Shown: positions 721 to 16,111, numbered from the stretch's first letter. The stretch: DNA of 44,287 bases from Solirubrobacteraceae bacterium (GCA_050696955.1 JBOGYT010000037.1:1-44287); one strand, 5' to 3'. A program made the numbers and translations. Notes: generated by a model not told the origin, from the sequence alone.

Positions 721-884
721 CTAGTGCTTCTCCTCGTGACGTCGCGCGTGATCCGACGGGATGCCGGCGCCGCTGGGCAAGGACGCAGGGAGGGCGCAAT
801 GGCCAAGCCATTGCCCCGACTGAGGACGCCGCCCAGCGGTGATCGGCGTCCGTCGGATCACGTGGGATGTTGCGAGGCGAAGCA

Positions 885-1709
885 CTACTCACCGTCTTTC
901 GGCGTCAGCGTGATCGAGAGGTGGCTCGTGCGCTTGCGGATCTGCGTCGCGCGACCCATGGCGCGCGGGCGGAAGCGCTTCAGCGTCGGCCCCTCGTCGG
1001 CCTTGACCGCGTGGATGCGCAGCTCGTCGCCGACCAGTTCGTGATTGTGCTCGGCGTTGGCGACCGCCGATTCCAAGAGCTTCATCCAGTCGCGCGCGAC
1101 GTCGCGGTTGGCGTGGGCGAGGATCGCGCGCGCCTCCTCGACGGACTTGCCGCGGATGTGGTCGCAGACGAGCCGCGCCTTGCGCGCGGACGTGCGCACG
1201 TACTTCGCGTGCGCGCGGACCATCGGCGGCCCACTGTTCGCGTCGCGTGCGGCGCGTTTCGGCGCAGGCGCCGGCTCGGCCGGCTTGTCGTCGGCCTTCG
1301 CGCGGCGCGTGCGGCGCGGCTTGGGTGCCTCCTCGGCGGGCTGAGCCTCAACCTCCGGCTCGGCCTCGGCCTGCGGCTCGGGCGTGGCCTCGGGCTCGGC
1401 CTCGGGCGTGGCCTCGGGCGCGGCCTCGGGCATGTCCGCCACGGCCTCTGTGACGTCCTCGTCCTCGGCATCGGCGACGATCTCGGGCGCGTCGGCCTCG
1501 GCCGTGGCCTCGGGAGCGTCGGCCTTCGCGGCACGACGGCGGCGCGGCACCTTGGCCGCCTTTTCCTCGGCGCCCGCAGCCTTGGCGTCCGGCCTGGCCT
1601 TGCGACGCGTGCGCTTGGGCTTCTCCTCGCTCGCGTCCGTCGGCTCGCCCTCGACCTTCTCGGGGTCGCGATCGGACTTCGATCGCGGTTTGCGCGGCGA
1701 CGGGCTCAC
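885..1709 (-). CDS. rplV: 50S ribosomal protein L22 with a probable 162-aa low-complexity N-terminal extension (conserved core 885..1223)
   Basis: The C-terminal 112 aa ([31 protein letters not shown]...[15 protein letters not shown]) is canonical L22. The same frame is open upstream to a GTG at 1709 that overlaps the rpsS stop (GTGA). The extension keeps a strong G/C third-position bias and is rich in A/E/P/K. Confidence 0.75.
1381..1428 (-). repeat. Two tandem 24-nt units (23/24 identical) inside the L22 extension, encoding PEA/TPEAE-type repeats
   Basis: ggcgtggcctcgggctcggcctcg at 1381-1404 is followed by ggcgtggcctcgggcgcggcctcg at 1405-1428. Confidence 0.8.
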
Positions 1710-1981
1710 GAGCGGACCTTCCCCGAGCCGGCGTGGCCGCGGTACAGCCGCGTCGGCGCAAACTCGCCGAGCTTGTGTCCGACCATCGACTCCGAGACGA
1801 AAACCGGGACGTGCTTGCGCCCGTCGTGAACGGCGATCGTGTGGCCGACCATCTCCGGGAAGATCGTCGACGCGCGCGACCACGTCTTGACCATCTGCTT
1901 CGTGTTCGCCGTGTTCATGGCCTCGATACGCGCCATCAGGCGCTCCTCGACCCACGGGCCCTTCTTCGATGACCTACTCAA
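1706..1981 (-). CDS. rpsS: 30S ribosomal protein S19
   Basis: The 91-aa translation [16 protein letters not shown]...[16 protein letters not shown] is canonical S19. The gene overlaps the rplB stop. Confidence 0.97.
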
Positions 1982-3139: not shown

Positions 3140-3793
3140 TTACCCGTCGCCCTCCGGTGTGGCGTCGGCCGCGCCGTTCTCGCCCTTGGCACGCGCGGTC
3201 AGCGCATCGAGCGCCTCCTGCGTGCAGACGACGGAGCCCGCTCCGATGAGGTCGGCGATCCCGACCATCGAGACCGGCAGGACGCTCACGCGGTCGAGGT
3301 TGCGAAACGACAGCGACACGCGCTCCTGCTCGTCGGTGAGCACGACGAGCGTCGGGCCCGCGAGCTTCGCGGAGGCCAGCAGCTCGGCGGCCTGCTTCGT
3401 CGACGGGGTGCCGAAGGGCTTGGGATCGAGGATCGCGATCGAGCTGCGGCGGGCGTGGACGGTCAGCGCGCTGCGCAGCGCCGCGCGGCGCTCCTTGCGG
3501 TTGACCTTGAAGGTGTAGCGGCGCGGCGAGGGGCCGAAGATCGTGCCGCCGCCGGTCCAGATCGGGGAGCGGATCGAGCCGGCGCGGGCACGGCCGGTGC
3601 CCTTCTGGCGCCACGGCTTGGCGCCGCCGCCGCGGACGTTGCCGCGCGTCTTCGTCGCGTGCGTGCCCTGGCGGCGTGCGGCGAGCTCCGCGCGCACCGA
3701 CTCGTGCACGAGCGCCTCGTTGAACGGTGCGCCGAACGCGACGTCGTCGAGCTTGGCCTTCTTCGAGTCTCCGAGAATCGGTGCCTCAGGCAT
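3140..3793 (-). CDS. rplD: 50S ribosomal protein L4 (start trimmed to the ATG at 3793)
   Basis: The track ORF 3140..3886 overlaps rplC. The internal ATG at 3793 ([17 protein letters not shown]...) lies just after the rplC stop at 3786-3788. [15 protein letters not shown] motif present. Confidence 0.93.
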
Positions 3794-4403
3794 CCGTGCG
3801 GACCTCCACGTAGCCGTTGCGCGGACCGGGAACCGAGCCGCGCACGAGCATGAGGTTGTCGGCCGGATCGAGCCGCACGATCTCAAGGCCCTTCTGCGTC
3901 ACGCGCTTGTTGCCCATCTGGCCCGGACCGCGGATGCCCTTGAACACGCGCGAGGGCGTCGCCGACGCACCGATCGAGCCCGGCGCGCGGACGTTGTGCG
4001 AGCCGTGCGACTTCGGGCCGCTGGCGTAGTTGTGGCGCTTGATCGTGCCCTGAAAGCCCTTGCCCTTCGAGACGCCCGAGACCTTCACGGTCTGGCCGAC
4101 CTCGAACACCTCGACCGTGACGGAGTCGCCGATCTGCCACTCGCCGGCCTCGTCGCGGAACTCCTTGACGTGGCGCATGGGCGCCGCGCCGGCCTTCTTG
4201 AGGTGGCCGAGCTCGGGCTTGGAGAGGTGCTTCTCCTTCGAGGCCCCGAACGCGAGCTGGACGGCCTCGTAGCCGTCGCGGTCGAACGTGCGGATCCCGG
4301 TGACCGGACACGGCCCGGCCTCGAGCACGGTGACGCGCTCGACCTTGCCGTCCTCCATGAACAGCTGGGTCATCCCGAGCTTCTTGGCAAGGATCGCGGG
4401 CAT
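3786..4403 (-). CDS. rplC: 50S ribosomal protein L3
   Basis: 205 aa, [15 protein letters not shown]...[12 protein letters not shown]..., canonical L3. Confidence 0.97.
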
Positions 4404-4594
4404 TCAGATGTTCGCCGCCTGGCCCGCGTGCGTGCGGGGTCGTGCAGGATCGAGCCGGTCGGGCGACGTGGACGACGTCGATGCTGATTGCATCGACGAG
4501 GACACGGCGGCCGATTCGGCGAAGGTCATGCGCCACCAACAGCTTCGCTGTCGGTGCCGCCGTGCGTGCGTGGGTCGGGCGGCGGACATCTGGG
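4404..4594 (-). promoter_or_regulatory. Unusually long, highly structured rpsJ-rplC intercistronic spacer; a 15-bp long-range helix bridges the rpsJ stop region and the rplC initiation region
   Basis: Plus-strand CAGATGTTCGCCGCC (4405-4419) and GGCGGCGGACATCTG (4577-4591) are inverted repeats, 14/15 complementary. Internal hairpins read on the minus strand: CACCGACAGC-GAA-GCUGUUGGUG and GUCGAUGC-AAUCA-GCAUCGAC. The 3' arm ends 1 nt before the TGA-ATG junction at the rplC start. Confidence 0.55.
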
Positions 4595-6204: not shown

Positions 6205-6449
6205 TGCGATTCGCTCCTCTGGGTCTGCGGTGAACTGGTTGAAACTATCGGATTGGCGGGGTTCGGGGCCTGTCAGCGAGGCCCCGGGCTGTGAGCAACA
6301 AAAACGGGCCCCTGGGGCCCGCGCGCACGTCCGCTTACTGCCGGTCCGTCGCGCTATGTGCTCAAGGTCCTCATCGTGAGACGTCTGCCGCCCTCAGGAT
6401 GCGCATGCGTGAGCGTGCTTCGCCCGGGAGCGGCGGCCGATGATAGCAA
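6205..6449 (-). promoter_or_regulatory. tuf promoter plus structured leader (copy A of a duplicated leader shared with fusA)
   Basis: On the minus strand there is an extended -10 TGCTATCAT (plus 6440-6448). The conserved core at 6292-6380 matches 16136-16228 at nearly every position. The core contains helix UGAGCA/UGCUCA, a GC hairpin and the hairpin CGGGCCCC-A-GGGGCCCG followed by UUUUUGU. Confidence 0.6.
6294..6321 (-). terminator. Intrinsic-terminator-like hairpin inside the tuf leader
   Basis: Minus-strand CGGGCCCCAGGGGCCCG followed by TTTTTGTTG (plus 6305-6321 stem, 6296-6304 A-run). Confidence 0.55.
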
Positions 6450-6991
6450 GCCGGATTGTGCCGTCCGCCCCGGGTGCCGGGCCGATCAGCCGTTCCGTGC
6501 AGCTCGTCGAGCTCGGCGAGGTCGACGAGGTCGCGCGGCCGGCCGGCGGCGCGCTTCATCGCCCGCAGGTGCGCGAGCGAGCACACCGGGCGCGAGCGCG
6601 TCGGACGAGATCCGCACGAGGATCCGCGCGGCACGAGCGCGTCGAACGGCGGCACGCCGGGCAGCCGGTTGAGCACCTGCACGTCCCCGTGAACGGGTGC
6701 GCAGCGCCTTACCGAGTCCCGAAGCTCACGGACCGCTGCCTCTCCCCGCTCGGTCAGATGAACGAGCGTCGCCCGCCGGTCGGATGGGTCCGGGTGCCGC
6801 TCCAGATACCCCTTCCCCTCGAGCTCGCGGATCAGATAGGTGATCGCCTGACGGCTCATCCCGGCACGCTCAGCGAGCGTCGTGACCCGCACTCCACCCT
6901 GCCAGCAGACGCCTGCTTTCCATGCGATCAGCAGTCTCCGAGCGGACCGCTCGGAGTGTTGCCACGCGCGAGAGCGAGCGTCGTGGGACAC
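6371..6991 (-). pseudogene. Chimeric ORF: MarR-type wHTH segment fused to the C-terminal remnant of a nucleotidyltransferase-like protein
   Basis: Residues ~35-95 read VTTLAERAGMSRQAITYLIRELEGKGYLERHPDPSDRRATLVHLTERGEAAV, a MarR wHTH, but the MarR C-terminal helices are missing. Residues ~100-165 read ...LNRLPGVPPFDALV...SLAHLRAMKRAAGRPRDLVDLAELDEL, which resembles nucleotidyltransferase/AbiEii-like C-termini. The 3' end overlaps the tuf leader. Confidence 0.45.
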
Positions 6992-7055
6992 GCGCGACGA
7001 GGGAGCACTCCATCAAGGTGTCGCACCGCACCTAGCGCGGTGCTACACTCGTCGG

Positions 7056-7313
7056 GTGCCCACGACCCGTCCCCGCTACACCGTGACCGATACCGGGCAG
7101 ACGGCCGAGCTGCTGGACCTGGCCCAGCAAGCATGGCCGGAGATCACCGATCGGCGCAAGCTCCTGCTGCGTCTCACGCAAGCCGGCGGCCGGGCCCTGC
7201 AGCGCGAACTCGCTGAGCAGACCACACGACGCGAACGCCAACGGGTCGGCCTCCAGCGAGCGGCGCAGCTCGTCGATATCGACGCGCTCACCGGCGACGG
7301 CGCGTGGCGCTGA
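7056..7313 (+). CDS. vapB: Type II antitoxin, VapB-like (probably leaderless, GTG start)
   Basis: An 85-aa ORF overlaps the downstream PIN gene by 10 nt. TGCTACACT (7041-7049) ends 6 nt before the GTG at 7056. Confidence 0.7.
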   Translation: MPTTRPRYTVTDTGQTAELLDLAQQAWPEITDRRKLLLRLTQAGGRALQRELAEQTTRRERQRVGLQRAAQLVDIDALTGDGAWR

Positions 7314-7672
7314 TCCTGCTCGACAAGTCCGCCTGGGTGCGAGGCGGCGCCGACCTCGTCGACTATGGCGAGCTGTGCATGTGCGCGATCACGAGGATGG
7401 AGATCCTCTACAGCGCACGCTCGGCCGACGACTTCACGACCTTGCAGCACGACCTGGACGCCTACCGCGATCTGCGCATCGATCACACGACCATCTCGGG
7501 CGCCGAAGCCGCGCAGCGTGAGCTGGCGGCGAGCGGGCAGCATCGCGCCGCACTGCCCGATCTGATCATCGGCGCATGCGCTCAACAGCACGGGGCAGAC
7601 GTCCTGCACGTCGACCGCCACTTCCACCTTCTCGCCGAGACGTTCGGCTTCCGCAGCATCCGGCTGCGGTAG
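7304..7672 (+). CDS. vapC: PIN-domain ribonuclease toxin VapC
   Basis: 122 aa with the acidic PIN residues in the expected order: LLDKS, TRMEILY, LPDLIIGACA, HVDRHF. Confidence 0.85.
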   Translation: MALILLDKSAWVRGGADLVDYGELCMCAITRMEILYSARSADDFTTLQHDLDAYRDLRIDHTTISGAEAAQRELAASGQHRAALPDLIIGACAQQHGADVLHVDRHFHLLAETFGFRSIRLR

Positions 7673-8239
7673 CGCAAGGCGGGAGGCTGCTCACTCGCGC
7701 GAATCGGAGCAGTTCGGAGGCGAGACTGTACCCATATCCCGCTTCGTCACCGTCCGGATAACGAGTCTCCCGCTGTCGCCTTGCGCGAGAACCAGCAGCG
7801 AAACCGGGCATCTGCGCGCAGCCAGCGCCGACCGGAGCTCGGCTATCGGGCGAGCGGATCGCCTTCATGTCGGCACCGGCGCGCGCCGAACTGCTTCATC
7901 GCGATGCCGCTGTTCTTAGCCCACCAGTAACGTCCATTGGCGGCGCCGTGAACGACGATTGTCCTCGAAGCCGGCGCGGTCGACGAGTGGGCAGTCCCGA
8001 TGGTGTACGACCGGGGTCGCGCGAGCCGAGTCCGTGATGACGATGCAACCGTGCGCCGCGCCTCGCCAGCAATCGAACGCGCGGACATCCAGAAGTTCAA
8101 CCAGCTCGGGAGCGGCGTTGATGCGAAAGCGGGAGTGGGGAGCCGTGCTGAGAGTCGCCGGTGCGGCGTCTGGGCTGCGAGCGATTGACGAACGCGTCGG
8201 GCGGCGGGAGTATCGGTCTAGGCAACAGAGGAGGCGACG

Positions 8240-8845
8240 ATGTCTTGGAGCGTGCGAGGTCGGTATTTCGAGAACTGCACCTGCGATGTCCCTTGTCCAT
8301 GCACCGCGTCGCTGTCGCTGGGAGCCGACTACGACCGCTGTCAGGTCGTGCTTGTCTTCCATGTTGACGCGGGCGACGTCGACGGCGTCGACGTGAGCGG
8401 GCTCACGGTGGCCGCGGTGGGTGACACGCCCAAGGTCATGACCGACGGCGACTGGCGCCTGGGCGTGCTGATCGACGCGGCCGCGACAGACGAGCAGGCA
8501 GACAAGCTCGGCGGCGTGTTCAGCGGGGCGCTGGGAGGCCCGATGGCGGCCCTCGCGCCGCTGATCGGCGAGAACCTCGGCGTCGAGCGCGTGGCTATGG
8601 AGTTCTCTTCCGAGGGCGGGCGGCACAGCGTGAGCCTGGGCGACAAGGGCAACGTCGAGGTCGAGGACGTGGTCCCCTTCGGCATCGAGACCGGCGAGCC
8701 GGCGCGCATCGTCGGAATCTTCCACCCGGTCGGAAGCGAGCTGACGATCAGCAAGGCCGGCGACTCGCAGATCAGCGCCTTCGGTCTGGAGCCCGTCCTG
8801 GCCGGCCAGTCCGGCTTCTCGACCACGTTCGCCTGGTCGGCCTGA
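8240..8845 (+). CDS. DUF1326 family protein (Cys-rich N-terminus)
   Basis: The N-terminus MSWSVRGRYFENCTCDVPCPCTAS is the hallmark of DUF1326. An SD GAGGAGG lies upstream. Confidence 0.8.
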   Translation: MSWSVRGRYFENCTCDVPCPCTASLSLGADYDRCQVVLVFHVDAGDVDGVDVSGLTVAAVGDTPKVMTDGDWRLGVLIDAAATDEQADKLGGVFSGALGGPMAALAPLIGENLGVERVAMEFSSEGGRHSVSLGDKGNVEVEDVVPFGIETGEPARIVGIFHPVGSELTISKAGDSQISAFGLEPVLAGQSGFSTTFAWSA

Positions 8846-8850
8846 CGGCG

Positions 8851-9702
8851 ATGACCGCGCTGCGGTCGCTGCCCGCCCGGCTCGAGAGCGGTCCGTACGC
8901 CGGCTGGCGGCTGGCGACCATCGGCGTGCTGCTGGTCCTCGCCGCCGCGGCGTGGGCGATCACGGGCGTGCGCATGGCCGGGATGGACGAGGGCCCCGGC
9001 ACCGATCTCGGGACACTCGGCTTCTACCTCACGAGCTGGGTCGTGATGATGGCGGCGATGATGTTCCCGTCAGTGGCCCCGCTCGTCGCCGTCTACGCCG
9101 GGCTGCAGCGCGGCCGCCGCGCGCGGGCGATGCCCGCGCCCGCCGCGGCGACGAGCTTCCTCGTCGCCGGCTATCTCCTGACATGGACGATCGCTGGTCT
9201 CGCCGCCTTCGGCCTGTTCGCGGCGGGCCGCACGCTCGTCGGTGATCAGCTGGCGTGGGACGCCGGCGGGCGCTGGGTGGCCGCAGCCGTGCTGCTTGCC
9301 GCCGCGGCCTACGAGTTCACGCCGCTGAAGCACGCCTGCCTGACGCGCTGCCGCGGCCCGCTGTCGTTCATCCTCGAGGCATGGCGCGACGGCCGGCTCG
9401 GCGCGCTGCGCATGGGGATCAAGCACGGAGCGTGGTGCGTCGGCTGCTGCTGGGCGCTGATGGCGGCACTATTCGCGCTCGGCGTGATGAGCATCGCGTG
9501 GATGGCGGTCGTGGCGCTGCTGATCGCGATCGAGAAGCTCTTGCCGTCGCGGATCGCCGCGACGCGCGCCGTCACCGCCGTGCTGGTCCTACTTGCCGTC
9601 GGCGTCGCGGCCGCGCCCGACCACATGCCCGCGTTCAGCGTGCCGCCGAGCGATGCCTCGGGTGCCGGGATGGGCCCCGGGATGTCGCCGATCGGACGCT
9701 AG
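8851..9702 (+). CDS. DUF2182 family predicted metal-binding integral membrane protein
   Basis: Multi-TM protein with VVMMAAMMFPS, KHACLTRCRGPLSF and HGAWCVGCCWALM motifs. Lies 5 nt after the DUF1326 gene. Confidence 0.8.
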   Translation: MTALRSLPARLESGPYAGWRLATIGVLLVLAAAAWAITGVRMAGMDEGPGTDLGTLGFYLTSWVVMMAAMMFPSVAPLVAVYAGLQRGRRARAMPAPAAATSFLVAGYLLTWTIAGLAAFGLFAAGRTLVGDQLAWDAGGRWVAAAVLLAAAAYEFTPLKHACLTRCRGPLSFILEAWRDGRLGALRMGIKHGAWCVGCCWALMAALFALGVMSIAWMAVVALLIAIEKLLPSRIAATRAVTAVLVLLAVGVAAAPDHMPAFSVPPSDASGAGMGPGMSPIGR

Positions 9703-9736
9703 CGCTCTGCGCGAGGCGCGAGAGCGACGCCCGATC

Positions 9737-10602
9737 CACGCGAGGCTGTCGCGCAAAGAGCGGGGTGTCGGAGTGCCGCTGCGGTTTCGGGCTACGCGGG
9801 AGGGCGAACCTCGGCGCTCGCTGGACTTGGTGTGCTCAGGCGGGTGCGGTGAAGTGTCGGTGGAGCTTGAGCAGATTGTGTGTGCTGGCCATGAGGCGCC
9901 ATTCGGTCCGTGCGGCTGATCTGCCGCGCCGGGCGAAGCGCGTGAATCCGCGGTTGTGCTTGGTGTTGCCGAAGATCGGTTCGATGAGCTGCGCGCGTTG
10001 CTTGTAGAGCGCCCTTCCGTGGTCGGTCGTCGGTCGCGATCGTTTCCTCGACGATCTCCTGCGCGATCTGCTGGTAGTCCAGCGTGCGGTCGGTTGGCGA
10101 TCGCCGCGACCTTCGTGCCGTCGATCGCGATCACGCCGACCGATGCAAGGCCAGCGTCCGCGCACAGCCCCAGCACCTCGCCGAAGAGATCCGCAAGCGC
10201 TGTCTCGTGACGCTCGATGAACCGCGCGACCGTCGCGTGATCGGGCTGCTGCTGGGCGGCGATCACACGGCACGCGACATCCTCGACACACGCCCGCTGC
10301 ATCCGCCGCGAGGAGCGCACGCCCCGCGACCAGCAATACAGCAACAGCGCCACCATCATCGACGGCTCGTATGCCGCGCGACCATGGCCATCATCACGGT
10401 AGGCGGCGTAGAACGCCGACAGATCGATCACCGCGACCGCGTCGAGAACGAACCACGCCAGATGGTCCTCGGGCAGCCACTCACGCACATCGGGCGGCAA
10501 CAGAAACGACTGCTCACGATCACACGCCAAGAAGTTGTGAGCCATACCCGAATCGTCCTAAACCGATCGGATAGCAGGCCGTTTACGCGACAGCCTCACG
10601 CG
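9737..10602 (-). mobile_element. Internally deleted IS1182/IS5-like insertion sequence bounded by imperfect 22-bp terminal inverted repeats
   Basis: CACGCGAGGCTGTCGCGCAAAG (9737-9758) matches the reverse complement of GTTTACGCGACAGCCTCACGCG (10581-10602) at 18/22 positions. These repeats enclose the transposase fragments. Confidence 0.7.
9836..10545 (-). pseudogene. IS1182-family transposase, N-terminal ~155 aa and C-terminal ~60 aa in different frames, central DDE region deleted
   Basis: The N-terminal fragment reads MAHNFLACDREQSFLLPPDVREWLPEDHLAWFV...IAIDGTKVAA (ORF 9589..10545). The C-terminal fragment reads RALYKQRAQLIEPIFGNTKHNRGFTRFARRG...NLLKLHRH (ORF 9836..10336). Confidence 0.75.
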
Positions 10603-10752
10603 AAAGGAGAAGCCCAGAGCTTCGGGACGAGTGTCCCGAGAACGCGTCAGCGACTCCTGCGTCGGCGAGGCTCCCCGTGTCTCATGTCGGCCTCATCGGG
10701 GCCCCGTAGCGTCGCCATTCGTCAAGACGGCTCGAACGACATGGAGGTATCA

Positions 10753-11526
10753 GTGAAGCTTGTCGCCCCCGCATCCCTCGCACTGCTCGCTACGGTGTCG
10801 CTGTTCGTCGGTTCTCAGCTGGTTGAAGGCGCCCCGGCTCGGTCCACTGCCCACTCGCGCGCGACCGTGCCGCTCAAGGACGCCAAGCTCAACATCGAGT
10901 ACAACGCGACGGACCACGACACCGGCTTTCAGGGGTTCGTCGACAGCGAGGGCTGGCGGCGGCTCGACATGCGCGGACCCGCCGGCAAAGTGCTGACGTT
11001 GAAGGGGCGGGGCGCGCTTGGCAAGCTGGGGCTGACCGAGCTTTTCTTTGAGACCGTCGAGCCGCAGACCGCGGACACGCCGATCAAAAGGATGCTCGCG
11101 AAGCTGCCCGCCGGGAACTACCGGATCGCCGGCCCGGCCCAGGAGAACGGCAAGCGCGCAGGCCGGACTGCGGGGACGGCGTGGCTCACGCATGACATCC
11201 CCGCGGGCCCGCGGCTCGTCTCGCCCGCGGAGGGCGCGACGGTGCCGACTCGTGGCGTCGTCGCCGACTGGGAGCCTGTGTCCAAGACGATCACCGGCAA
11301 GCCCGTAAGGATCATCGCGTACCAGCTCATCATCGAGAAGGACGTAAAGCCCCACCGTCACATGATCGGAAAGTTCGGCCTGAGCATGCACCTGCCACCC
11401 TCGGTCACCAGCATCGACGTGCCGGACGGGTTCCTCGAGCCCCGCAGCGCCTACAACTGGGAGGTCCTGGCGATCGAGCGCAGCGGCAACCAGACCCTCT
11501 CGTCCGGCTCGTTCAACACCGGATAG
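10753..11526 (+). CDS. Secreted hypothetical protein (signal peptide, no recognisable family)
   Basis: The GTG at 10753 follows GGAGG by 4 nt. The N-terminus VKLVAPASLALLATVSLFVGSQLVEGAPA is signal-like. Strong GC3 bias. The upstream part of track ORF 10084..11526 is antisense to the transposase. Confidence 0.6.
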   Translation: MKLVAPASLALLATVSLFVGSQLVEGAPARSTAHSRATVPLKDAKLNIEYNATDHDTGFQGFVDSEGWRRLDMRGPAGKVLTLKGRGALGKLGLTELFFETVEPQTADTPIKRMLAKLPAGNYRIAGPAQENGKRAGRTAGTAWLTHDIPAGPRLVSPAEGATVPTRGVVADWEPVSKTITGKPVRIIAYQLIIEKDVKPHRHMIGKFGLSMHLPPSVTSIDVPDGFLEPRSAYNWEVLAIERSGNQTLSSGSFNTG

Positions 11527-11708
11527 TGCCCTCGAGCACTGGGGGCGCTTCCGGGACGGCCCAGTCGCCGGTCGAACGTACCGCACAGCTACGCAATGCG
11601 CGAGGAGGAGCACTCGAGCGGTAGCGCTCGCACGCGGAGGGAGAAGCGGCTGGTGCAATGGCTCGCCGAGGACGCGTCCAGAGGTAGGGCGCGTGCAGCG
11701 TGCGAGCC

Positions 11709-11993
11709 CTATTGCAACGTCAGGTCCGCGTCTTCAAAGGCGCGTGAGCGCATTTCCGTCACGGCGTCGAGCAAACCGCTCGCTCGCAACGCTTCGCCGT
11801 GCTCAGGCTGTGACTGATAGTCGTCGCGCGCCTCAGAGGACTCCCAGAACGTGGCCACGACAACGCCGCTCTCCGTTGGCGCGACCATTCGGGCCAACAC
11901 GACCGGCGTCGGACGGCGAGCTTCAAGGTCCGCTGCCGCGGCGAGCAGCGCGTCGGTCGGACCGTCCATCTCCAGAATGACCAGCACACCCAT
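11709..11993 (-). CDS. Small hypothetical protein, possibly ABM/Dabb-like fold
   Basis: The ATG at 11993 is preceded by GAGGAGG. The 94-aa product starts MGVLVILEMDGPTDALLAAAADLEARRP... The rest of track ORF 11709..12488 looks non-coding. Confidence 0.5.
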   Translation of the reverse strand: MGVLVILEMDGPTDALLAAAADLEARRPTPVVLARMVAPTESGVVVATFWESSEARDDYQSQPEHGEALRASGLLDAVTEMRSRAFEDADLTLQ

Positions 11994-12296
11994 GTGAACC
12001 TCCTCGAGGGTCGACCAGTTGCGGCTGACCGTACCCGCGATGAGACAGCACGAGCAAACATCGGGCACGATCCCCCTGACACACGGATCTCGACGGCGGG
12101 CGGCGACGTCAAAGCTCGATCCGTGTCGCCGCGACGGCATCGCTGATTCGACACTCCGCGAAGTTGCTGCAGCGCCGTTCGAGCGCCCGTCGCGGACAGC
12201 AGCGCTACTCCCCCGGCTCGAAAATCCGTACGCGGCGCCGCGTGTGTAGCCGAAGCGTGGTCGCACGCTGTCGGCCGCGCGCCGCACGGTCGATGT

Positions 12297-12500
12297 GTGG
12301 CAAGGAAGTTTCGAGAGGTTCGGCGAGCCCTGTCGGACGCCTGCTGGACGAAGGTGCGGCAAGCTGGCTCGCACGAGACGTGGCGCAGCCAGGACGGCGC
12401 GAGATCGATCACGGTGGCCGGCTAGGAGTCCGATACCGTTCCCGTCGGGACCCTTGGCGCCATCCGCCGGGCGACAGGACTGGAGCATCTGCGAGGAAGG
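12297..12500 (+). pseudogene. hicA: hicA-like mRNA interferase toxin interrupted by an in-frame TAG (12423-12425)
   Basis: The frame starting at GTG 12297 reads VARKFREVRRALSDACWTKVRQAGSHETWRSQDGARSITVAG*ESDTVPVGTLGAIRRATGLEHL. It carries the GSH motif and the GTL..I...GL C-terminal motif of the HicA family. It is not listed as one ORF in the track because of the stop. Confidence 0.6.
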
Positions 12501-12706
12501 ATTATCTCGTCATCTACGAACGCGCTGAAGACGGTAGCTGGGGCGGGCACAGCCCCGACGTGGAGGGAGTGTTCGCGCTGGCGAAGACGCGCGAGGAGAC
12601 CGAGGTCCGTATGGCCGAGGCTCTGACAGCACACTTGGCGTACCTGCGCGATCAGGGGCAGCCCACGCCCGAGCCGCGCACCGATGCCGGTCGCGTCGCG
12701 GCCTGA
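12500..12706 (+). pseudogene. hicB: HicB-family antitoxin domain lacking a canonical start codon
   Basis: DYLVIYERAEDGSWGGHSPDVEGVFALAKTREETEVRMAEALTAHLAYLRDQGQPTPEP matches the HicB/UPF0150 N-domain. The position where Met is expected holds AAG, and there is no ATG/GTG/TTG nearby in frame. Confidence 0.5.
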
Positions 12707-13205
12707 TCTGACGTCGCCTTCCACGGAGCGAGTACGGCTCCGCCGACGCCGTACCCGCTGAACCTACACCGACGATCGCCGGGACTCGCTGTCCCTCCGC
12801 GCGAGAAGCGAGCGCGGTGACGATCGGCGCAAAACGCACCCGACCTCTGCTGGCGACGCGGCCTGCGGCGCTCGCTGGCACCTGGGCGTGTCCCGCATAG
12901 CCCGCCTCTACCGCGACATGTCACCGAACGAGGCTTGCGCGGGGCATTGGGTGGCACGGGGTCGTGGAGATCACGGTCGGCGCCCAGCTTCGTCACGTTG
13001 TGCGGTTCCGCTCGGCGCATGTCGGGGTTCGCCCTACGCGATGATCTGGGAGCTGAATGCGTGTTCCATGTCGAGAAGCGCTGACCGGCTCCGCTCATCA
13101 GATGAAGGGCCGCGAGCGGCGCGGCCCACAACACCAGGAGACCGCGATGCCGAGGTATCTGCTGCACGACGAGTACACGGCGCAGGAGCTGACCGGAGGC
13201 CGTTC

Positions 13206-13643
13206 ATGACCGTCCAGCGCCTGGAGCACATCGGCATCGTCGTCGACGACCTCGCGGCGGCGACCGCGTTCTTCGCCGCACTCGGGCTCGAATTGGAGGG
13301 CGAGGCGTCCGTCGAGGGCGGCTCGGTGGACCGCATCAACGGGCTCGAGGGCGTGCGCGCGGATATCGTGATCCTGCGGACCCCGGATGGCAACGGCAAG
13401 GTCGAGCTGGCCAAGTACCGCTCGCCCTCGTACGAAGGCGACGACGGGCCGGCGCCGGCCAACGCCCCGGGCATCCGCCACATCCTCTTCGTCGTCGACG
13501 ACATCGAGGCATCCCTGGCCGGCCTGCGAGCGCATGGCGGCGAGCTGGTCGGCGAGCTGGTGAACTACGAGAACAGCTACTGGCTCTGCTACGTGCGCGG
13601 CCCGGCCGGGATCATCGTCGAGCTGGCGGAGAAGATCAGCTGA
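13206..13643 (+). CDS. VOC family protein (glyoxalase/bleomycin-resistance/dioxygenase fold)
   Basis: The ATG at 13206 follows GGAGG. The product reads MTVQRLEHIGIVVDDLAAATAFFAALGLELEGE...IRHILFVVDDIEASLAGLRAHG. Confidence 0.85.
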   Translation: MTVQRLEHIGIVVDDLAAATAFFAALGLELEGEASVEGGSVDRINGLEGVRADIVILRTPDGNGKVELAKYRSPSYEGDDGPAPANAPGIRHILFVVDDIEASLAGLRAHGGELVGELVNYENSYWLCYVRGPAGIIVELAEKIS

Positions 13644-13990
13644 TGGGTGTCCCATTGTTCGGTCAGGAGCACGTCGCCCGATACCGCGAAACCGACGGCG
13701 AGAAGGCCACGACTGGCAGGGCGCGACGGTATTGCTGCTCACCACCACCGGGCGCAACTCGGGTGCCAAGCGGACCACGCCGCTGATCTACCAACGGCAC
13801 GAGACGACTACCTAGTGGTGGCCTGAAACGGCGGCGGCAATCCACCCGGCTGGTTCCTCTACCTTCAAGACGATCCGATCGTGGCCGTGCAGGTCAAGGC
13901 CGATCACCACAGCGACGTCGGCGCCGCTGCACGATCCGCTGAGGAGGGAGTTCGGGGCGGTCAGCCAGCCGGGATGCGTACGACGAGTAC
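13643..13990 (+). pseudogene. Deazaflavin (F420)-dependent nitroreductase family gene (DUF385/Ddn-like) with at least 2 frameshifts and an in-frame TGA
   Basis: Family-typical segments lie in three different frames: MGVPLFGQEHVARYRETDG, then EGHDWQGATVLLLTTTGRNSGAKRTTPLIYQRH, then DDYLVVA*NGGGNPPGWFLYLQDDPIVAVQVKADH (TGA at 13824-13826). Confidence 0.7.
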
Positions 13991-14011
13991 ACGTGATGCC
14001 CGTCGACGGAG

Positions 14012-16111
<2,100 letters not shown>

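Follow-up and report, generated by a model that had tools for sequence, protein, structure and literature searches.

A structured, strand-specific intercistronic repeat with a bridging reading frame in the S10 operon of Solirubrobacterales

In the stretch of DNA analysed here, 44,287 nucleotides (nt) from a Solirubrobacteraceae bacterium (GCA_050696955.1 JBOGYT010000037.1:1-44287; the whole stretch is referred to below as the window), the ribosomal protein genes rpsJ (S10) and rplC (L3) are separated by a 191-nt gap that folds as one long hairpin and is spanned by an open reading frame (ORF) of 61 codons. Judged by comparison with related loci, the gap holds a diverged copy (copy 1) of a previously undescribed, structured, strand-specific intercistronic repeat of the Solirubrobacterales; no description of this repeat family was found in the literature. 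The ORF of copy 1 most likely passes ribosomes from rpsJ to rplC and so preserves translational coupling across the insert, a reading to which a probability of roughly 0.6 may be attached. Several roles had been listed for the spacer in a first-pass annotation made from the sequence alone, and among them a translational coupling device is the one that the comparative data support.

A bridging reading frame in the rpsJ-rplC gap

Minus-strand gene order in this part of the window is tuf (6204-5020), rpsJ, the 191-nt gap, rplC, rplD, rplW, rplB, rpsS, rplV and rpsC. The features of the gap and its two flanking cistrons are as follows.

4921-4595, minus strand: rpsJ (S10), the upstream cistron; stop codon UAG at 4597-4595
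4594-4404, minus strand: rpsJ-rplC spacer, repeat copy 1; 191 nt
4589-4404, minus strand: relay (bridging) ORF of 61 codons; AUG 5 nt past the rpsJ UAG, UGA abutting the rplC AUG
4592-4578, minus strand: 5' arm of the terminal helix (P1), CAGAUGUCCGCCGCC; starts 2 nt past the rpsJ stop and holds the relay AUG (4589-4587)
4556-4547 with 4543-4534, minus strand: inner hairpin CACCGACAGC-GAA-GCUGUUGGUG; 10 bp including one G.U
4498-4490 with 4484-4476, minus strand: inner hairpin CGUCGAUGC/GCAUCGACG
4419-4405, minus strand: 3' arm of the terminal helix, GGCGGCGAACAUCUG; ends 1 nt before the rplC AUG
4403-3786, minus strand: rplC (L3), the downstream cistron; no Shine-Dalgarno (SD) sequence

That an ORF of 61 codons fills the spacer and abuts the rplC start had been proposed at first pass and is borne out, and frames of this kind recur throughout the clade. 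A bridging ORF is present in 19 of the 21 S10-operon gaps of at least 60 nt, an occurrence well beyond chance: 1.76 would be expected were the whole gap shuffled and 9.24 were the ends fixed and only the interior shuffled, and 19 was reached in 0/200,000 simulations. Shifting the frame by 1 or 2 nt broke the bridging in 37 of 42 variants. Nearly every copy of the repeat in a tight gap has an ORF that starts on, or at most 5 nt from, the upstream stop (the junctions taking the forms TAGTG, ATGA, TGA-G-ATG and TAG-GTG), and these ORFs end on, or a few nt from, the downstream start (TGATG, ATGA, TAG-ATG, TGA-ATG).

The peptide itself is not conserved. Copy 1 and its counterpart in a related locus, L128, share 21 of 53 residues at 77% nucleotide identity, and the frame in which the core nucleotides are read varies from copy to copy. 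The 61-residue product has no homologue among 5.8 billion proteins and belongs to no Pfam family, and neither the exact spacer peptide nor the exact L3 protein is on record. G+C content at third codon positions (GC3) is 0.77 in the relay ORF and 0.92-0.95 in neighbouring genes, a deficit that had been recognised from the sequence alone; at second positions (GC2) it is 0.73, against 0.39-0.53.

The whole gap forms a single hairpin closed by the terminal helix, the arms of which are complementary at 14 of 15 positions with a single C.A mismatch and show ensemble pair probabilities of 0.95-1.0. Together they form the outer portion of an imperfect inverted repeat of 33 nt (4405-4437 with 4560-4592), and the 3' arm spans the last codons of the relay ORF together with the UG of its UGA stop. 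The minimum free energy (MFE) of a 216-nt region is -104.7 kcal/mol, with a shuffle mean of -82.7 (z = -4.5) and 0/200 shuffles folding as well; making the 3' arm unavailable would cost 19 kcal/mol. No GGAGG stands upstream of the rplC AUG, no direct-repeat array was seen in the spacer, a scan of 4404-4594 found no promoter or terminator consensus and no U-tract after the hairpin, and the 32-nt 5' arm has no further copy within the window. The first-pass annotation thus stands as to the long-range helix, the two inner hairpins and the lack of a canonical SD; it was right that the gap is unusually long but gave its size as 190 nt, and it set the 5' arm 6 nt after the rpsJ stop, where the actual distance is 2 nt.

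Close cistrons can be coupled by re-initiation and/or by the unfolding of structure at the downstream start, the efficiency of coupling drops quickly with distance, and a short ORF can 'deliver' a ribosome (PMC12548453); MIRUs appear to insert at start codons with the ORF of the repeat coupled to the gene (PMC12548453, citing Supply 1997). In the mechanism proposed here, rplC, which has no SD, would normally be started by ribosomes finishing rpsJ 0-10 nt away; the insert would separate the two genes by 191 nt of stable structure, and the 61-codon ORF would restore the link. A ribosome terminating at the rpsJ UAG would already have opened the base of P1 and would restart at the AUG 5 nt downstream, which lies inside the 5' arm and within reach of the terminating ribosome. 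Translation of the relay would then proceed through the hairpin and melt it, and the ribosome would stop at the UGA abutting the rplC AUG and restart there. Free ribosomes would find the rplC start closed by the terminal helix, and L3 synthesis would stay tied to S10 synthesis. We infer both that the ORF is translated and that its translation drives initiation of rplC.

By its L3 protein the window belongs to Solirubrobacterales. Comparison of this junction across 168 genome and metagenome loci of Solirubrobacterales (designated by L numbers) places the insert as an exception within its clade, the rpsJ-rplC gap having a median length of 6 nt and reaching 60 nt or more in only 6 loci. Fifteen public contigs carry a 100% identical S10 protein, and the gaps on such contigs measure 0-7 nt; in the nearest genome, L001 (L3 97% identical), the gap is 7 nt. 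Three other loci have related sequence here. In L128 (L3 80% identical) the gap is 168 nt long and its ends match those of the window's gap. The 43-nt gap of L002 (L3 96% identical) joins the first 33 nt of the window's gap to the final 8 nt, and in L003 the gap is 13 nt, AGATGACCG/TCTG; both are internally deleted versions in which the frame has been kept. Length differences between orthologues are in frame more widely, at +30 nt in L058 and L019, -147 nt (49 codons) in L002, and in stepwise losses in the rplB-rpsS group. Because the closest relatives have gaps of 0-7 nt, the spacer is, on this comparison, not a conserved rpsJ-rplC regulatory RNA, and the first-pass proposal of a conserved regulatory element falls on short spacers in related genomes, the very outcome it had named as fatal to itself.

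The dispersed repeat family

An interior motif common to L128, L075 and L167 (GCGTCCT...GCGTCCTTG) is found at other junctions in the loci, always on the operon strand. Searches with a profile and with a covariance model (R1, built without copy 1) over ~0.79 Mb of loci yielded 25 canonical copies, all on the sense strand. Tight intercistronic gaps hold 17 of them, at the junctions rpsJ-rplC, rplW-rplB, rplB-rpsS, rpsS-rplV, rplV-rpsC, rpsK-rpsD, x-rnc and hxlR-xseA; six directly follow the fusA stop, one lies after the last gene of an operon, between convergent genes (L175b), and one is at the end of a membrane-protein ORF. Some copies lie within or are fused to the ends of ORFs (L172), L173 has one directly upstream of rnc, and the element also occurs before xseA, dnaE, rpe, guaA and tuf and after xseB. 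A peptide profile derived from the core matched 62 ORF clusters in 1.84 billion representative proteins, and these adjoin many unrelated genes (rpe, guaA, an aldehyde dehydrogenase, a DtxR-type regulator). The canonical element had no match in plasmid or phage collections. An R1 match at 15481-15548 of the window (E 0.018), antisense inside fusA, was taken as chance, and a minus-strand match in L148 (E 6e-4) was set aside as lying inside coding sequence.

A canonical copy is present in the window itself.

721-884, minus strand: repeat copy 2, canonical, in the rplV-rpsC gap; core 769-840; R1 score 67.5 bits, E 1.4e-15

Copy 2 forms one hairpin over the whole gap (MFE -103.7, z -7.0). Its P1 arms, 885-873 and 736-724, cover the rpsC SD GAGGAG (734-729), and its relay ORF has 54 codons, from GUG at 885 to UAG at 721.

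Outermost in the family architecture is a long terminal helix (P1); its 5' strand begins with the upstream stop codon and includes an AUG or GUG. There follow a 7-bp helix (P2), a large internal loop and an irregular apical hairpin (P3). The internal loop, which separates P2 from P3, has two invariant strands, GCGUCCUC and UGCGUCCUUG. Every copy is closed by a stem of 15-33 bp, and the terminal helix varies in sequence from one subfamily to another. Covariation was tested on 21 copies in an alignment made by MAFFT from sequence only, the structure comprising P2, two 2-bp steps and P3: 84.6% of alignment cells pair, against 28-47% in slid controls; both sides change in 14 of 17 pairs; and the covariation score is 0.42, against 0.08-0.13 in slid controls, with 0/500 shuffles reaching the observed values. 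The flanks outside P2 also pair, with a mean of -38.4 kcal/mol for cognate and -28.7 for non-cognate combinations, and in copies with unique flanks each flank's own partner ranks first against all others.

Six orthologous fusA-tuf copies are 0.856 identical, where the references are 0.406 for the adjacent spacer, 0.615 for four-fold sites of tuf and 0.897 for the whole of tuf. Because the copies are so much more alike than the spacer beside them, the canonical element is, on these identities, constrained or homogenised and not drifting. No ORF bridges the gap after fusA, and tuf has its own SD ~100 nt further on. A separate box, TTTAGATAGATTTCYCAGGTTCGCC...CAGGAGC...AAGTG, is conserved before tuf in the fusA-tuf spacers of ~25 loci (e.g. 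L043, L063) and may be the promoter, or leader and SD, of tuf itself.

Copy 1 is tied to the family by global alignment with L128 (z = 13.6; 120 of 155 positions, or 77%, identical) and with L064 (z = 8.8), which themselves score 60.7 and 54 bits with R1. What is left of the core, and the start codon inside it, are the following.

4454-4520, minus strand: remnant of the family core; P2 GCCG (4520-4517) with CGGC (4457-4454), central hairpin 4498-4476
4527-4529, minus strand: internal in-frame AUG within GCAUGACC, aligned to CCUGGAUGACG in L128 and CCGGAUGACC in L064

Relative to the P2 of L128 (GCUGG/CCAGC), that of copy 1 shows compensatory change, and the internal AUG corresponds to the conserved G-AUGA-C of the family's inner 5' strand. 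Of the two loop motifs, motif 1 has decayed to GUGUCCUC (4505-4498) and motif 2 is missing; the former internal loop is now an ordinary helix, with CGUG paired to CACG. The 10-bp hairpin at 4534-4556 is an extra insert against L128, which is gapped there in the alignment.

With L128, L064, L007 and L131, copy 1 makes up a 'long' subfamily of 170-190 nt, each member of which is one hairpin. An AGAUG.../...CAUCU clamp closes each of these hairpins and is common to copy 1, L128, L002, L007, L131 and subfamily 1; beyond the clamp the sequences are complementary yet different, as the distal part of P1 illustrates.

Window, distal P1: UCCGCCGCC / GGCGGCGA
L007, distal P1: CUCACCUU / AAGGCGAG
L131, distal P1: ACCGGUU / AACCGAU
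Subfamily 1, distal P1: ACCGUGAG / CUCACGGC

Distal P1 thus covaries across these copies, and the terminal helix passes the covariation check that had been called for at first pass. The copies in L007 (4064-4247) and L131 (1745-1936), both in rplW-rplB gaps, are long clamped hairpins without the core and have an interior motif of their own, GGAUCGCCACG...GGCCGUG...CACUGUCC, suggesting a further subfamily.

In front of several copies the 5' end of the downstream gene is present a second time, from its original start codon (ATGA) onwards, so that the old start codon becomes the start of the relay. In L173 (394-597) the duplicate comprises rnc codons 1-30 and is ~91% identical to the real 5' end, and in L174 (10001-10165) it comprises rpsS codons 1-14; others are found in L019, L057 (rplB-rpsS), P0009, P0011, P0012 and P0017, with shorter in-frame remnants elsewhere, the range being 9-93 nt. 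The pattern looks like insertion accompanied by a long duplication of the target, and differs from that of known bacterial MITEs. A uniform short target duplication (TA, TAG or ATGA) fits some copies and not others, and comparison of filled with empty fusA-tuf sites revealed no duplication.

Other insertions and structures were encountered in the loci. In some copies (L019 ~3240-3275, L058 ~4120-4160, L066 ~4240-4290, L067 ~4290-4330) the apical loop contains a second, nested palindrome of ~30 nt (CTGGCCGATCGGCGATCCCGTCGATCGACGATCGG and variants), with the relay frame intact each time. L171 has a solo 3' half of the repeat between rplQ and truA (12452-12480) and, between adk and map (7309-7800), an ORF with DUF4096, the N-terminal domain of IS5-type transposases. 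Some S10-operon gaps of Thermoleophilaceae-like loci (L078 2436-2500, L079 402-461 and the 79-nt rplB-rpsS gap of L064) are filled by another conserved hairpin, GCGGGGC...GCCCCGC or CCGGGC...GCCCGG, with GGAGG after it, and bridging ORFs are found there too.

As for the neighbouring genes of the window (6205-16111), fusA (14012-16111, minus strand) does not adjoin tuf and lies ~8 kb from it, and just upstream of tuf are a terminator-like hairpin (6322-6304) and a gene of the MarR family (6371-6991); in L174 an insert with MFS and MarR genes is placed between rpsG and fusA instead. In the rplV ORF (885-1955, minus strand) the L22 domain is confined to residues 248-350 and is preceded by a long N-terminal extension rich in Lys, Ala, Pro and Glu; L22 is long in L174 too, at 219 residues.

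Weighing the relay against other readings

Several observations count against a relay, or against copy 1 as a witness to one. Firstly, with its ends fixed this spacer alone would be open with a P of ~0.44, frames in G+C-rich sequence being commonly open, and the case therefore rests on the ensemble, in which many copies are orthologous and ~8-12 independent events are represented; at that number the bridging signal remains clear. Secondly, R1 does not detect copy 1 at E<=10 with filters off, nor does nhmmer, and its divergence from L128 is near the level of four-fold sites (0.57-0.71), so it may be drifting. Because R1 misses it, its motifs are lost and its divergence is of this order, copy 1 is regarded, on these comparisons, as a diverged derivative without the core and not as a canonical member. 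Thirdly, the cells that are not Watson-Crick pairs divide into 9 G.U and 14 A.C, which does not show that folding takes place in the sense RNA rather than in DNA, and the sense bias may stem from the direction of replication, with which operons are normally co-oriented. Lastly, a relay role does not explain the strong conservation of the canonical core.

The competitor that fares best, although it too is unlikely, is a host hairpin of the REP kind: a target of, or barrier to, RNase III or exonucleases, or a translation-sensitive attenuator. Its stem would form only when untranslated and would trigger cleavage, decay or termination of the ribosomal protein mRNA, and the ORF would matter only because translation holds the stem open. 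Such a role would account for the 15-33-bp stems, for copies at places where no relay is needed (after fusA, in L175b between convergent genes, upstream of rnc in L173) and for the constraint on orthologous copies; it leaves unexplained the invariant loop motifs and the exact keeping of frame in tight gaps, and termination in particular finds neither a U-tract after the hairpin nor a terminator-like site in the spacer scan. It is, moreover, compatible with a relay rather than exclusive of one.

That the spacer is a neutral relic is improbable without being negligible. In that case a selfish repeat would have inserted and since worn away, its ORF would happen to be open because the DNA is rich in G+C, and ribosomes would begin rplC independently or through long-range scanning. 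The loss of the core in copy 1, its divergence from L128 near the level of four-fold sites, the 44% of shuffled interiors with fixed ends that are open and the close relatives that do without the element are all as this account would have them. Against it stand the missing SD of rplC, whose AUG is placed at the base of a helix that pairs with a probability near 1, the frame kept in the deleted derivatives L002 and L003, and the 19 of 21 bridged gaps, a statistic that speaks against chance.

It is highly improbable that the spacer is an autoregulatory leader in which an rRNA mimic would be bound by L4, L3 or S10, or a switch that senses a ligand and controls rplC, as its position in the S10 operon, its strong structure and the mutually exclusive pairing open to the 5' arm might suggest. 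The local partner on which a switch had been proposed at first pass, GGCGGC, is real and pairs in partial transcripts, but L128 has no equivalent, and with the alternative pairing not conserved there the switch is unsupported. Rfam, which the first-pass annotation had pointed to as a check, yielded no relevant family, whether the window was searched at the gathering threshold, the region at E<=10 or the canonical copies at E<=1; a MIR918 match at E<=10 only reflects the long inverted repeat. The closest relatives lack the element, and the same element stands before rnc, xseA, dnaE, rpe, guaA and tuf and after xseB, a distribution by which the leader or switch reading, the L3/L4-type site included, is largely refuted. 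Resemblances to a k-turn (C/D box), SECIS, boxA or an anti-SD mimic we take to be weak or due to overlaps of stop and start codons. Least probable of all is an ordinary small gene whose 61-residue product has a function of its own, which would suit the open frame and the placing of start and stop as in a coupled gene and is rejected on a base composition remote from that of real genes (GC3 0.94, GC2 0.4-0.5), the lack of any homologue, Pfam family or recorded product, and an orthologous L128 peptide that is poorly conserved while the conserved nucleotides are read in different frames; it and the leader or switch are both close to excluded.

A more speculative thought, and one that is itself unlikely to prove right, is that the family may be an active RNA module and not tolerated junk. 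Its invariant pyrimidine-rich loop may recruit the ribosome or a factor for termination-reinitiation, making the repeat a portable 'coupling cassette' loosely like the calicivirus TURBS. Alternatively, the loop may be recognised by a mobilising machinery whose insertions fall at start codons and duplicate 9-93 nt from the 5' end of the target gene. Such an insertion signature differs from those of known bacterial MITEs and suggests copying that is target-primed or proceeds by template switching.

In the ribosomal protein operons of this abundant and little-studied soil clade, one repeat family probably accounts for the long structured gaps, which should not be annotated as leaders, riboswitches or small genes. 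They also constitute a natural experiment, in that across ~170 species nearly every long S10-operon insert has a relay frame, which speaks for a dependence of these genes on ribosome hand-over and for its repair by selection. The covarying core, whose loops are invariant and which changes as slowly as tuf, is a concrete candidate for a new interaction of RNA with a protein or with the ribosome, or for a new mechanism of mobilisation.

Comparison with known systems

Long-range helices that hide a downstream start until the upstream frame is translated are known from rpmI-rplT of E. coli and from the coat-lysis/replicase region of MS2 (PMC12548453), and the terminal helix described here resembles them in this respect; those helices are gene-specific, are neither repeated nor mobile, and have no intermediate relay ORF. 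An intrinsic terminator differs in another way, since 4404-4594 lacks the U-tract that would accompany its G+C-rich hairpin.

Among dispersed repeats, ERIC, Correia/NEMIS and other MITE-like elements share with this family a length of 100-160 bp, ends that pair and co-transcription with their neighbours, and Correia stems are substrates of RNase III. They have conserved terminal inverted repeats, short TA target duplications and both orientations, whereas here the terminal helix varies by compensatory change, with only AGATG/CATCT common to the ends of the copies, no target duplication is uniform, and all 25 of 25 canonical copies are sense. The REP and BIME elements of enterobacteria are likewise dispersed, transcribed stem-loops found after stop codons and between cistrons, and REP act in mRNA stability, in attenuation and in how the upstream gene is translated, roles that are plausible here too. 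REP sequences are, however, palindromes of ~35 nt that cluster in both orientations and are tied to RAYT transposases, with no relay ORF and no large conserved internal loop. Rickettsia palindromic elements (RPE) are also tolerated in translated regions with the frame open; they sit inside protein-coding genes as in-frame inserts, whereas this family lies mostly between genes.

The closest parallel is with MIRUs, which, like this family, are actinobacterial, intercistronic in operons and oriented with the genes, and which carry a small ORF that overlaps or abuts the flanking stop and start (ATGA, TGATG), so that coupling survives insertion and the peptide itself is not the point. MIRUs are units of 40-100 bp, often in tandem arrays, for which a long hairpin or invariant loop motifs have not been described; the Solirubrobacterales family, compared with them by description and not by sequence, is a single covarying hairpin of 100-190 nt with two invariant motifs. 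Copy 1 shares the intercistronic bridging ORF with MIRUs and differs in being a single 191-nt unit and not a tandem of 40-100-bp units. Within its own family, copy 1 has homology to L128 and L064 over its full length, a single clamped hairpin and a sense-oriented gap with a bridging ORF, and has lost the invariant loop motifs, which copy 2 carries. The kind of element, with the logic of MIRUs and hairpins like those of REP, is already known; what is new is the family, with its architecture and its conserved core.

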